This document shows positions 23,010 to 31,015 of a stretch of DNA of 36,921 nucleotides, piece after piece (position 1 is the first letter of the stretch; each line of letters begins with the position of its first letter). The stretch covers positions 1-36,921 of the IMG/VR virus record IMGVR_UViG_2531839667_000014; one strand, given 5' to 3'. Made by a program: the position numbers and the translations under genes. The notes under the pieces are model-generated. The model searched no databases, had not been told where the DNA came from, and worked only from the letters and a program-made list of their open reading frames with translations. Source of the stretch: a virus. Its lineage: Duplodnaviria; Heunggongvirae; Uroviricota; Caudoviricetes.

Positions 23010-23084
<75 letters not shown>

Positions 23085-23087
23085 ATA

Positions 23088-23163
<76 letters not shown>

Positions 23164-26252: not shown

Positions 26253-26467
26253 CTCCCCTTAAGGGGTCCATCCATCTTCTCCCTGCGCGCTACTCAAAAC
26301 GGGTGAATTCTAATTAATCTTTATTTCGAAGCAATCGCAAAAAACAAAATAGAAAATAAAAACAAACACACTAAAAACAACAAATACAACTATATCGAAA
26401 ATTAATTAACTATTCGGACAGCAGAGCAATATAACTTCAGTTAAAATCATTAATCTCCCTTATTCAT

Positions 26468-26494
26468 GAAAAACAAAACCCGCCGAAGCGGGTT
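26468..26494 (-). terminator. rho-independent terminator at the 3' end of the hok transcript
   Basis: Minus-strand AACCCGC-ttcg-GCGGGTT followed by TTGTTTTTC. Confidence 0.6.
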
Positions 26495-26562
26495 AAGTGC
26501 GGGTGCGTTGAGGATGCCTGACACATCAGAGGTGGCGAGGGATTTCTCCCCCGCCGGGTCTC

Positions 26563-26718
26563 TTACTCCTCAGGTTCGTAAGCTGTGAAGACAGCGACCT
26601 CCGTCTGTCCGGTTCGGATTCGTACCTCGCAGAGGTCTTTCCTCGTTACCAGTGCCGTCACAATGACGGTTAAACAGATGACGATCAGGGCGATTAGCAT
26701 CGCCTTTTGCTGCTTCAT
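26563..26718 (-). CDS. hok: Hok-family type I toxin (HokD/RelF-like)
   Basis: 51 aa MKQQKAMLIALIVICLTVIVTALVTRKDLCEVRIRTGQTEVAVFTAYEPEE; single TM helix; AAGGAG RBS; the track ORF is extended in frame by 19 codons. Confidence 0.9.
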   Translation of the reverse strand: MKQQKAMLIALIVICLTVIVTALVTRKDLCEVRIRTGQTEVAVFTAYEPEE

Positions 26719-27007
26719 AGCCTGCTTCTCCTTGCCTTTCGGCACGTAAGAGGCTAACCTACGTGTGCAAGTCATAGATATGGCCTCAGATTAATGTTAA
26801 GCGTCTTGCAGGACGCGTAATGTTAACTGGGGCTTTCTCTGCCTGCCTTACAGTGGCATGCCCGAGGCAGACAGCCTCAAGCACCCGCAGCAATTCTACT
26901 TAACTATCTTTCTCCCGCAAATCGTTTTTATCCCCAGCGGCAAATCGAATACACAACCAGTGCTACCGCCATTGCAATTCCTACTGTTGTGAATGCCTCA
27001 GGCCAGG

Positions 27008-27700
27008 TCATCGTAAAACATCCTCCACGCCTATCAACCCGTTCCGCTCCAGATAGCCCATCGCATTATCTGGCAATTTGCAGTCCGGTTTCGATTTCTT
27101 CAGTTGGCTGACTAATTGCTTCACCAGCATTGTCAATTCGATAACCTGTTTGCCTGATGTTCGCTCACTACAGCTTATCCAATCATCCGGAGTTGCCGGG
27201 GAGCTGGTTGACGAATTCTTATTTTCCCGAAAGTTTCCGGCCTGAAACATAGCGGCGCGGTGACACCAGATAATCCAGCCAATCGCCATATCCCATGCCA
27301 TGTATTCGCTACCGCCATTTTTTGCCCTGCGGCGATCAACAGAATCCCCGAAATGCTTCTCCATAAATAACTCATAGGCAGCCCGTTCATCCGGCACCAC
27401 CAGCATTGGCGGCGTGGCGTATAGCTTACGGGTCTGAACACCTGCCCCCTGGCATTTCTCTTCCTCAACAAATCTTTCGAAAGCATATTCCCCGCAATCT
27501 TCCCATTCTCCCCATTCATCATATTCTGCATCCCACTGGCGATACTGATATGCCACTGGCTCTGCTTCCAGCGATGCCAGAGCAATACGAAACACATTGG
27601 CAAGCAGGCTGTTTGAAGATTGGTTATCGTGCGCCGAATCGCTCAGAAAACCAGTGATGAATGATTTAATCTCCGCGCTTTCTCTGGTAATAGTGGTCAT
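27008..27700 (-). CDS. hypothetical protein, acidic Trp-rich N-half and basic C-terminus
   Basis: 230-aa ORF tightly packed with neighbours; no recognisable family. Confidence 0.5.
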   Translation of the reverse strand: MTTITRESAEIKSFITGFLSDSAHDNQSSNSLLANVFRIALASLEAEPVAYQYRQWDAEYDEWGEWEDCGEYAFERFVEEEKCQGAGVQTRKLYATPPMLVVPDERAAYELFMEKHFGDSVDRRRAKNGGSEYMAWDMAIGWIIWCHRAAMFQAGNFRENKNSSTSSPATPDDWISCSERTSGKQVIELTMLVKQLVSQLKKSKPDCKLPDNAMGYLERNGLIGVEDVLR

Positions 27701-30946: not shown

Positions 30947-31015
30947 ATTGTTCACTTAAAACGAACATAAGTCAACAACCTGAGGAATTGTTAGTGTTCA
31001 CTGAACGGTTATAAT
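30947..31015. promoter_or_regulatory. immunity switch: divergent promoters with operator repeats
   Basis: Minus-strand promoter TTGACT-N17-AACAAT (30975..30947) overlapped by TGTTC-N9-GAACA (30949..30967); plus-strand promoter TTGTTA-N16-TATAAT (30988..31015) with the palindrome GTTCAcTGAAC (30996..31006) in its spacer; TATAAT ends 6 nt before the repressor ATG. Confidence 0.6.

Follow-up and report, generated by a model that had tools for sequence, protein, structure and literature searches.

The canonical scheme for hok/mok/sok type I toxin-antitoxin loci is that of plasmid R1, for which repression by Sok, cleavage of the duplex by RNase III, 3' trimming of hok mRNA, and killing upon loss of Sok have been shown (PMC9841398). 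The tac/fbi/ucb/dcb scheme and the requirement for mok translation come from the same source, in which the mok Shine-Dalgarno (SD) sequence of R1 is GAGG, a mutation of the R1 sok promoter falls in dcb, and translation of mok up to the hok SD matters while the Mok protein does not (PMC9841398). In a prophage, hokW-sokW of 933W/Sp5, whose toxin is 44% identical to R1 Hok (Takada et al. 2021, PMC8621323), operates as a type I system that shows repression and a partial dependence on RNase III. The sokW gene requires its -10 element, and changing TAACCT to GAGCCG (primers YO-421/422) destroys antitoxin activity. After mitomycin C treatment, sokW RNA disappears and HokW appears in a RecA-dependent manner, and in a hokW-sokW deletion growth arrest comes later and phage release falls by half (PMC8621323). 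The HokD protein is likewise toxic when expressed (bioRxiv 10.1101/2025.08.07.668861).

We analysed a window of 36,921 nucleotides, which is the whole stretch of viral DNA under study (IMG/VR record IMGVR_UViG_2531839667_000014). Judged from its sequence, the segment 26469..26920 carries all parts of a hok/mok/sok type I toxin-antitoxin locus, and homology identifies it as E. coli hokD in its full-length version, closely related to the Stx-phage hokW-mokW-sokW. We consider it highly probable that the locus is intact, that it follows the canonical R1 scheme, and that its likeliest role is the one tested for hokW-sokW. All RNA ends were assigned by homology; expression and biological role are what we infer from the comparison. 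The module itself is already well known, and it is ordinary and common in E. coli; a sequence related to the locus is present in 4738 of 5426 complete E. coli genomes. The features are collected in Table 1.

Table 1. Features assigned to the hok/mok/sok locus and its upstream flank in the window.
Feature	Position	Strand	Basis or remark
27-codon hydrophobic ORF (MTWPEAFTTVGIAMAVALVVYSICRWG)	26928..27011	minus	ATG overlaps the stop of the upstream gene
hok/mok promoter: -35 TTGCGG (26920..26915), 16-nt spacer, -10 TAGAAT (26898..26893)	26893..26920	minus	sequence and homologues
Full-length hok mRNA, ~418 nt: leader, mok/hok, and a 3' UTR containing fbi and the terminator	26469..26886	minus	5' end from the Rfam model start and tac homology; 3' end from the terminator
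tac (translational activator element) GGGUGCUUGAGG	26875..26886	minus	mRNA 5' end
ucb / anti-SD box AAAGCCCC	26829..26836	minus	Rfam consensus, minimum free energy (MFE) fold; definitions in PMC9841398
Long leader hairpin	26788..26828	minus	complement of the Sok hairpin
mok SD GAGG	26784..26787	minus	GAGGC conserved in homologues
mok ORF, 70 codons	26563..26775	minus	in-frame 19-codon N-terminal extension of hok
dcb (downstream complementary box) AGCCUC	26750..26755	minus	Rfam consensus pairing
hok SD AAGGAG	26728..26733	minus	
hok toxin CDS, 51 aa	26563..26718	minus	PF01848, PHROG 251, identity to K-12 HokD
UACG motif at Tyr47 (UAC), candidate TadA A-to-I site, Tyr to Cys	26577..26580	minus	hokD homology
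fbi (fold-back inhibitory element) CCUCAACGCACCC	26501..26513	minus	complementarity to tac
Intrinsic terminator, hairpin AACCCGCUUCGGCGGGUU followed by UUGUUUUU	26469..26494	minus	
sok promoter: -35 TTGCCT (26732..26737), 17-nt spacer, -10 TAACCT (26755..26760)	26732..26760	plus	
Predicted Sok antisense RNA, ~70 nt	26767..26836	plus	homology to the annotated 71-nt sokW

Toxin gene and mok reading frame

The sequence-only reading had proposed a hok-type type I toxin, and this was borne out by a minus-strand Hok/Gef ORF matching PF01848. The 70-aa in-frame ORF gave E=2.9e-23 against this profile, with all 42 profile positions covered, and Hok matched PHROG 251 ("MokW-like host killing") with E=2.8e-33. 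The toxin, which carries the RefSeq gene name hokD, is identical to K-12 HokD at 51/51 residues and to HokW at 46 of 51. Scores against the NCBIfam Hok models were below the curated cut-offs (48.5 bits vs 73) and were therefore left out of the evidence. Among copies whose DNA differs by 5-10%, the Hok protein is constant, the changes being synonymous. The surroundings of the UACG motif are identical to those in K-12 hokD, the mRNA of which is reportedly edited at the equivalent Tyr (PMC5630033), and Tyr47 is accordingly listed as a candidate site for TadA recoding to Cys. The window contained no second hok locus, as judged by a single match to the tac pattern (0.02 expected) and a single match to RF01794. 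In RefSeq, only hokD is annotated here and mok and sok are unannotated; therefore, the record lacks the antitoxin RNA as well as the regulatory elements.

The doubt expressed earlier as to whether the in-frame extension of hok is the real mok was not upheld. Its ATG occupies the same position as those of mokW, mokC, and R1 mok, lying 12 nt after the start of GAGGC in every homologue compared, R1 included, and the annotated mokW (933W) and mokC (K-12) are likewise in frame and share the hok stop. A mok in another frame was rejected because the minus strand has no further ORF of 20 codons or more across the hok start. The exact 70-aa mok sequence is recorded on 150 contigs. Among close relatives, the mok frame is 0, +1, or +2, which fits the view that translation of mok, not the Mok protein, is what counts. 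The context of the hok SD, AAGGAGAAG, is invariant across all aligned hok loci.

Leader, promoters, and predicted RNA structures

The full hok/mok/sok layout that had been anticipated was supported by the Rfam match of the leader, the tac/fbi pairing, and the Sok hairpin. The leader, about 170 nt long, matched RF01794, a model of the hok-sense strand that extends from tac as far as the hok AUG, over the full model (1-157) with 100 bits (gathering score 59, E=1.1e-21). The corresponding scores were 89 bits for R1-type loci, 114 for 933W, 110 for hokB, and 118 for hokC, and the strand relation of the match to hok was the same in all of them. Alignment of the leader with R1 and chromosomal hok loci, as the sequence-only reading had advised, located the sok promoter, tac, and fbi. 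However, the non-coding leader of about 290 nt (26719..27007) had to be shortened: according to homology and the Rfam model, only 26886..26719 (168 nt) is transcribed leader, and the rest consists of the hok promoter followed by the conserved 27-codon ORF, which is outside the toxin-antitoxin core.

The -10 element of the hok promoter ends 6 nt upstream of the predicted start site, G26886, and aligns at the same position with TATAAT of hokC and TATGAT of R1; TAGAAT and its spacing to tac are kept in all aligned prophage homologues. The sok hexamers and their spacing are identical to those of sokW in 933W/Sp5. The antisense gene, whose intactness had been posed as a condition, appears to be intact, given this identity with the tested sokW promoter and the predicted Sok hairpin. 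A promoter consensus scan missed both the hok and the sok promoter, since they reach only 8/12 and 7/12 consensus positions, respectively. Both promoters were placed by homology to 933W, hokC, and R1, together with the published sokW -10 mutant, and the scan result is therefore a caveat and not evidence of absence.

The predicted Sok RNA has a single-stranded 5' tail of ~17 nt that spans the SD and AUG of mok, continues into a long hairpin (MFE -31.9 kcal/mol, z=-4.55), and has the 3' end GGGGCUUU, whose U-run (UUU) is one U shorter than the UUUU of sokW. In the complementary strand, the leader hairpin carries a 16-nt insertion, GCGUCCUGCAAGACGC, that is absent from hokC, R1, and the Rfam consensus.

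In silico folding of the full-length hok mRNA (MFE -179.3 kcal/mol, z=-7.17) paired its 5' end with the 3' region. This structure contains the tac/fbi duplex, which consists of 12 bp with one bulged C (-19.8 kcal/mol) and covaries in hokB (U-A to C-G, G-C to A-U) and also in R1; the ucb sequence GCCCCAG is paired with CUGAGGC. In the closed fold of the full-length RNA, ucb would pair with the mok SD; in the open fold it would pair with tac, and dcb, which overlaps the sok -10 of the opposite strand, would pair with the mok SD. In the Rfam consensus, the tac/ucb pairs (1-8 with 52-58) and the mok-SD/dcb pairs (100-104 with 133-137) are each 99-100% canonical across 97 distinct homologues from IMG/VR and RefSeq, which are close relatives with few informative pairs and in which mRNA positions 1-19 are invariant by construction because the homologues were retrieved with the tac pattern. 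Compensatory changes were seen at pairs 60-98 (GC/CG) and 63-94 (AU/GC) of the leader hairpin, and the window itself shows a compensatory G15-C46 where most of the 97 homologues have A-U. The tac/ucb stem of the Rfam consensus was not reproduced in the MFE structures of the 3'-trimmed mRNA or the isolated leader, both of which form a 5' hairpin of tac and the sequence immediately downstream; this may be the metastable hairpin described for R1.

The intrinsic terminator noticed behind the toxin gene was recovered as a terminator-like hairpin (26494..26477) followed by TTGTTTTT to 26469. It is common to K-12 hokD and most prophage copies and is missing at 933W hokW.

Prophage setting and likely role

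The assignment to a prophage proved correct. The window belongs to a lambdoid prophage of E. coli DCE7 and spans the integrase end and the replication, Q, lysis, head, and tail genes. The locus sits between the replication genes and DUF968-RusA-Q, and comparable copies precede DUF968-RusA-Q in 8 other E. coli genomes. It is co-oriented with a pR-like early promoter (near 30975..30947) and lies ~4 kb downstream of it, and the early genes from this promoter to hok are on the hok strand. A scan of this interval gave only three terminator-like sites, which were weak and at chance level; the hok terminator was the most convincing such site in the scan.

The 27-codon ORF upstream of the locus is conserved in 933W and other prophages, with one peptide encoded by three nucleotide variants, and at L008 an ORF6N gene intervenes between it and hok. 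About half of the sampled prophage copies have a short hydrophobic single-helix ORF upstream, in at least three sequence classes, and this ORF might be functionally linked to hok and not just adjacent to it. The 27-aa ORF was also considered as the tail of a DUF551 protein; although it clustered with 121-aa DUF551 proteins, the peptide is absent from them, and the grouping was dismissed as an artefact.

Extended to the window from sequence and structure, the R1 scheme would operate as follows. The hok promoter would give rise to the ~418-nt mRNA, in which the 5' tac pairs with the 3' fbi and ucb sequesters the mok SD, so that the full-length RNA would be neither translated nor bound by Sok. 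Slow 3' trimming would strip fbi, and the 5' end would refold into tac/ucb and mok-SD/dcb pairs with the mok start region exposed. The unstable ~70-nt Sok, made from the convergent promoter inside mok, would pair through its 5' tail around the mok AUG, blocking mok translation and marking the duplex for RNase III. Once Sok is lost, mok would be translated in frame with hok, the hok SD would be opened, and the 51-aa Hok would depolarise the inner membrane.

The likeliest role of the locus is that, upon prophage induction, Sok would vanish and Hok would aid growth arrest, lysis, and phage release, with prophage addiction as a second possible effect. Because the locus is co-oriented with the pR-like promoter and lies ~4 kb past it, induced read-through could silence the convergent sok promoter. 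On the other hand, the 3' end and the prophage position differ from those of hokW, and the hokW phenotype may therefore not transfer. The sequence-only reading had suggested an addiction or abortive-infection module, which is plausible but contrasts with the sole tested close homologue, since hokW-sokW helps lysis and phage release (PMC8621323). It seems rather unlikely that addiction is the main role, such that prophage loss would lead to Sok loss and to killing by the stable hok mRNA. Stabilisation of the prophage is not a known effect of hokW or hokD-type loci. The study of Takada et al. covered growth, which was normal in the deletion lysogen, and lysis, viability, and phage release, which were affected. 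The intact-looking chromosomal hokA, hokB, and hokC gave no post-segregational killing in earlier work cited in a preprint (bioRxiv 10.1101/2025.08.07.668861). These points stand against the classical role of R1 hok/sok (PMC9841398), the label "prophage maintenance" given to mokW/hokW in the 933W record, the ~4-fold enrichment of hok genes in prophages stated in the literature, and the tac/fbi-locked design for a stable mRNA that is present here.

Abortive infection or phage exclusion, in which transcription shut-off by a lytic phage would deplete Sok and Hok would kill the cell before the invader matures, is improbable as the role of this copy. Defence genes are frequent in prophages, and high-copy R1 hok/sok is cited as having cut T4 plating by 42% and plaque size by ~85% (PMC8621323); however, this R1 effect was modest, was seen at high copy, and came from a plasmid and not a prophage copy, and hok is reportedly not enriched near defence systems. 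We regard it as equally improbable that the locus is structurally intact but silent, with Hok never released in a meaningful amount and the genes carried as neutral prophage cargo. Several chromosomal hok loci are reported to be of this kind, both promoters are weak by consensus, and the U-run of Sok is shortened. Yet the regulatory elements are all intact, compensatory changes maintain the structural pairs, Hok is constant despite the divergence of the DNA between copies, and decay of the K-12 type (IS insertion, truncation) is absent from the window locus; moreover, hokW-sokW, which is 90% identical, functions in its own prophage (PMC8621323).

Variation within the transcribed locus is greatest in the first ~10 nt of Sok and in their target, the first mok codons. 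At least eight discrete alleles of this Sok-tail region exist, whereas the promoter, the hairpin, and the toxin are almost constant. The allele of the window differs from that of SokW at 9 of 20 positions in the 5' tail and target, and the window Sok would not share the specificity of SokW. The predicted energies for 12-nt pairing between the window and SokW were -2.9 and -5.9 kcal/mol for the non-cognate combinations, compared with -17.5 and -19.5 kcal/mol for the cognate ones. Tentatively, the alleles could be selected specificity classes by which co-resident lambdoid prophages each control only their own Hok, although we hold this to be doubtful; if true, the loss or induction of each prophage would be sensed separately. 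If the classes are real, such loci would form a natural set for tests of antisense cross-talk between co-resident prophages, and they could also be used to examine early-promoter read-through as the switch that turns Sok off at induction. Beyond correct annotation, the significance of the locus is small.

Comparison with described hok loci

With R1 hok/mok/sok (parB), the locus shares the order of elements, i.e., tac, ucb, mok SD, dcb, hok SD, and fbi, and the R1 sok promoter (TTGCGC-17-TATCCT) has the same position as that of the window. In R1, mok occupies the +1 frame and runs on through hok, whereas the window mok is in frame. R1 is plasmid-borne, with proven post-segregational killing, and the window copy is in a prophage. 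The hokC(gef)-mokC-sokC locus of the E. coli chromosome has an in-frame mok, the same tac, and the same leader architecture, with 74% identity over 362 nt. It lacks the Sok-hairpin insertion, which measures 16 nt against the Rfam consensus and appears as an 18-column gap in the hokC row of the alignment. In addition, hokC is chromosomal and lies outside a prophage, and the K-12 copy has IS186 beside its 3' end.

The hokW-mokW-sokW locus of 933W/Sp5 (AF125520) is ~90% identical to the window locus over 521 nt (89.7% over 523 aligned columns), and the alignment spans the small upstream ORF, promoter, leader, CDS, and fbi. Both are carried by lambdoid prophages and have the same in-frame 70-codon mok and the same tac and fbi, and the Sok hairpins are identical but for one loop base. 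The two toxins differ at five C-terminal residues, where the window Hok agrees with HokD. A terminator follows fbi in the window, whereas there is none at that place in 933W, and the 933W locus lies near the record end beside a large ORF and not between replication genes and DUF968-RusA-Q.

K-12 hokD (relF, Qin prophage) is 98% identical to the window over 264 nt, with a near-identical 3' UTR, fbi, and terminator, and its downstream neighbourhood matches that of the window, with small ORFs followed by DUF968/ydfU. The contrast drawn earlier with this copy, which sits behind relBE, was confirmed, as the window has a full leader and sok and lacks relBE. Homology to the window begins at the hok SD, directly behind relE; tac, ucb, mok, the sok promoter, and Sok, all of which are present in the window, are absent from K-12 hokD, and the truncated locus gave no Rfam leader match. 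The window copy shows the state of K-12 hokD before relBE replaced its leader.

Toxin gene, leader and mok frame

The hok gene is a 51-codon ORF on the minus strand (26563..26718); read from an in-frame ATG lying 19 codons further upstream, it is a 70-aa ORF (26563..26775, minus strand). The 70-aa product matched Pfam PF01848 (Hok/Gef) over the entire profile (E=2.9e-23), and the 51-aa form matched PHROG 251 'MokW-like host killing' (E=2.8e-33). As the sequence-only reading had stated, this ORF is followed by an intrinsic terminator, consisting of a hairpin and a T-run (26494..26469). Scanning the minus strand over the ~4 kb that follow the early promoter revealed just three other terminator-like sites, all much weaker and about as many as the scan's shuffles gave. 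Directly 3' of the terminator, before the next small gene, lies a very A+T-rich, ORF-free stretch of ~160 nt (26300..26460), which gave no Rfam match at gathering thresholds. The UAC codon of Hok Tyr47 is part of a UACG (26577..26580, minus strand), the TadA recognition motif; the sequence at this site is identical in K-12 hokD, whose mRNA has been reported to be A-to-I edited at the same Tyr, giving Cys (PMC5630033).

RF01794 'sok' was the sole non-tRNA Rfam match in the entire window (26886..26713, minus strand; model positions 1-157), at 100 bits (gathering score 59; E=1.1e-21). Although named 'sok antitoxin', this family matched the hok-sense strand, from tac to the hok AUG, at every reference locus (L001, which is phage 933W, L003, L005, and L015), indicating that it models the hok leader and not Sok itself; such a match tells the strand of hok, not that of sok. 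The leader comprises only 168 nt (26886..26719) and not the 290 nt of non-coding sequence initially proposed; the promoter and a 27-codon ORF (26928..27011, minus strand) lie upstream of it. When the locus was compared with R1 and chromosomal hok loci, as the same reading had suggested for the leader, tac, fbi, and the sok promoter elements were all found. Elements are named, and their roles understood, as described for R1 (PMC9841398); mRNA positions count from 26886 as position 1 towards lower window coordinates, and all coordinates were checked against the sequence.

Coordinates of the elements of the hok/mok/sok locus
Feature	Coordinates	Strand	Remarks
hok promoter -35 TTGCGG	26920..26915	-	
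hok promoter -10 TAGAAT	26898..26893	-	16-nt spacer
hok mRNA start site G	26886	-	
tac GGGUGCUUGAGG	26886..26875	-	
ucb (anti-SD) AAAGCCCC	26836..26829	-	
long leader hairpin	26828..26788	-	
mok SD GAGG	26787..26784	-	
mok AUG	26775	-	
dcb AGCCUC	26755..26750	-	
hok SD AAGGAG	26733..26728	-	
hok AUG	26718	-	
hok stop codon	26565..26563	-	
fbi CCUCAACGCACCC	26513..26501	-	
terminator	26494..26469	-	hairpin 26494..26477, then T-run 26476..26469
sok -35 TTGCCT	26732..26737	+	
sok -10 TAACCT	26755..26760	+	17-nt spacer
Sok RNA	~26767..~26836	+	~70 nt

The in-frame extension had been considered probably not the real mok, a view that four observations contradict. Its ATG (26775) follows the first base of the conserved GAGGC by 12 nt, the same distance as in mokW, mokC, and R1 mok; the annotated mokW and mokC end at the stop codon of hok and are thus in-frame extensions; and the ORF listing of the window contained no second minus-strand ORF of ≥20 codons overlapping the hok start. 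Moreover, three forms of the mok frame occur among near-identical prophage and plasmid copies that are ~90% identical to each other: frame 0 (70 aa, in frame with hok) in the window, 933W (L001), and EC16; frame +1 (68-70 aa, reading through hok) in pFORC64 and R1; and frame +2 (an upstream ORF of 19 codons ending in a UGA that overlaps the hok AUG) in BMH-17 and p4A. K-12 mokB is likewise out of frame with hok. Small indels in the stretch from the mok ATG to the hok SD switch the frame. These three frames fit the published finding that what counts is translation as far as the hok SD and not the Mok peptide (PMC9841398).

RNA pairing and the antisense gene

Every element of the scheme is present and arranged at the window locus with the potential to pair. 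The predicted fold of full-length hok RNA reached -179.3 kcal/mol (z=-7.17), and no shuffle was equally good. In this fold, the first 12 nt pair with fbi (-19.8 kcal/mol for the duplex taken alone), and ucb GCCCCAG pairs with CUGAGGC, which contains the mok SD. The tac/fbi pairing is kept with changed bases in hokB (U-A to C-G and G-C to A-U) and in R1. After the Rfam consensus pairs were mapped onto 97 distinct homologues from IMG/VR and RefSeq, the tac/ucb and SD/dcb stems were 99-100% canonical, mRNA positions 1-19 being conserved by construction, as the homologues were fished by a tac pattern. Compensatory pairs were found at 15-46 (AU in 76, GC in 13; G15-C46 in the window locus itself), 21-40, 60-98, and 63-94. 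The tac/ucb stem was not reproduced in minimum free energy folds of the 3'-trimmed hok RNA or of the leader alone. The prophage hokD/hokW group shares a 16-nt insertion, GCGUCCUGCAAGACGC (26801..26816, mRNA 71-86), that the Rfam consensus, hokC, and R1 lack; it extends the Sok hairpin, and likewise its target, by five G+C-rich pairs at the top.

The antisense RNA expected of such a layout was supported by a predicted Sok fold (-31.9 kcal/mol, z=-4.55), in which ~17 nt at the 5' end stay unpaired and a long hairpin follows, and by a promoter whose -35, spacer length, and -10 are base-for-base equal to those of the tested 933W/Sp5 sokW. The SokW hairpin differs from that of the window in one loop base, and the 3' U-run of the window Sok is one U shorter. 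On this sequence evidence, the antisense gene looks intact. In Sp5, sokW RNA is seen in northern blots, and changing the sokW -10 TAACCT into GAGCCG with primers YO-421/422 (the 'pro-less' construct) abolishes protection against HokW, which sokW in trans partly restores (PMC8621323). We infer that Sok is also expressed in the window's strain.

Within the transcribed locus, column entropy was highest at mRNA 111-120 (window 26776..26767), the target of the Sok 5' end, where the sampled loci carry at least eight discrete alleles. The Sok 5' tail and first mok codons (26767..26786, mRNA 101-120) are its most variable part; there is hardly any variation in the sok promoter, hairpin, and toxin. Predicted pairing energies of the first 12 Sok nt were -17.5 to -19.5 kcal/mol for cognate targets, which are perfect pairs by construction, versus -1.5 to -11.8 kcal/mol for non-cognate ones. 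The window allele, ATGACTTGCACACGT, recurs at ≥99% identity in ~20 RefSeq records; of the three hok-like places on the DCE7 chromosome, just one has this allele.

Prophage context and distribution

The 581 bases around the locus are 100% identical to E. coli DCE7 (pig lung, NZ_CP090611.1), in a lambdoid prophage annotated as adjoining yccA; the window starts at the integrase end and is thus essentially the prophage. The prophage genes run in the order integrase, exonuclease, dicB, ydfC/B, a divergent repressor pair, YdaT-like, replication-type HTH, DUF977, Ea22-like, three hypothetical genes, hokD, two small ORFs, DUF968, RusA, antiterminator, two tRNAs, holin, lysozyme, terminase, and head and tail genes. 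RefSeq annotates hokD alone at the locus, with mok and sok absent. It places tRNA-Thr and tRNA-Gly (23013..23163, minus strand) between the antiterminator and holin genes, as in many lambdoid and Stx-type prophages. Seven other chromosomes showed the same placement (variable early/accessory genes, the locus, a few small ORFs, and DUF968), and two plasmid copies adjoin phage antirepressor genes or IS elements. The locus was matched by 106 records of the phage collection and in 4738 of 5426 complete E. coli genomes (median two places per genome, maximum 10), with matches covering ≥80% of the query in 2188 of the 5426. According to a recent survey, almost 80% of the Enterobacteriaceae genomes available carry hok, which is ~4-fold enriched in prophages.

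The 27-codon ORF upstream of hok encodes a hydrophobic peptide, MTWPEAFTTVGIAMAVALVVYSICRWG; its ATG overlaps the stop of the 230-aa gene upstream (ATGA), its end is 8 nt from the hok -35, and it is missing from the RefSeq annotation here. The peptide is conserved with six substitutions in 933W and identical in two other contexts. Among the sampled loci, three nucleotide variants encode this one peptide, and such synonymous variation suggests that the ORF is translated. Of the 125 hok loci sampled, 69 had a hydrophobic single-helix ORF that ended 25-110 nt upstream of tac and belonged to one of at least three sequence classes (..VVYSICRWG, ..MAVMCIEYWR, and ..YCLVVFLMDRLGN); examples were noted at the window and L001, L007, L008, L012, L018, L033, and L061. 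In one genome, an ORF6N gene intervenes between the MTWPEAFTTVGIAMAVALVVYSICRWG ORF and hok, indicating a frequent neighbour and not a required part.

Role and relation to hokW and hokD

The mechanism is most likely the canonical hok/mok/sok scheme, by which transcription, 3' processing, Sok binding, RNase III cleavage, and killing would proceed at the window locus. The sole direct evidence on role in a close relative comes from Takada et al. (PMC8621323): after mitomycin C, sokW disappears and HokW appears in a RecA-dependent manner, and without the hokW-sokW locus, growth arrest comes ~40 minutes later and phage release is halved. The cause of sokW removal was left open by these authors. In the window, the early genes and the locus share one orientation, the locus lying ~4 kb downstream of a pR-like promoter (TTGACT-17-AACAAT, 30975..30947), with only weak, chance-level terminator-like sites between; early transcription might therefore read through into the convergent sok promoter, a testable explanation. 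Addiction and abortive infection are both possible roles, and each is compatible with the others.

The layout had been described as unlike that of K-12 hokD. This proved correct: the K-12 HokD protein is identical to the window Hok and its 3' UTR is 98% identical over 264 nt, but homology ends at the hok Shine-Dalgarno, with relE upstream instead. Rfam found the RF01794 leader in 933W, hokC, hokB, and the R1-type plasmid locus, and no leader match in the K-12 hokD region. By sequence comparison, the window locus is the untruncated form of hokD. The terminator hairpin after fbi is common to the window, K-12 hokD, and most prophage copies, whereas in 933W (L001 3013..3060) and 2015C-3107, homology to the window ends right after fbi and a YgiW-like gene comes next. 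A match to Rfam sRNA-Xcc1 (RF02221, 69 bits) ~2.4 kb upstream of hokW (L001 186..274, plus strand) falls outside the region homologous to the window.

At the sequence level, the locus has all the features of the hok/mok/sok family and falls, like hokW, into the lambdoid-prophage group. It is an ordinary, widespread element that had been correctly identified, two details aside, and is nothing new in kind: annotation of the group goes back to the 933W genome record, tests of hokW-sokW date from 2021, and the toxin family is catalogued as PHROG 251. The 933W record (AF125520) carries curated mokW, hokW, and a 71-nt sokW antisense RNA beneath the match to the window (89.7% identity over 523 aligned columns), and the window differs from hokW in its Sok-tail allele, HokD-type C-terminus, terminator after fbi, and prophage position.
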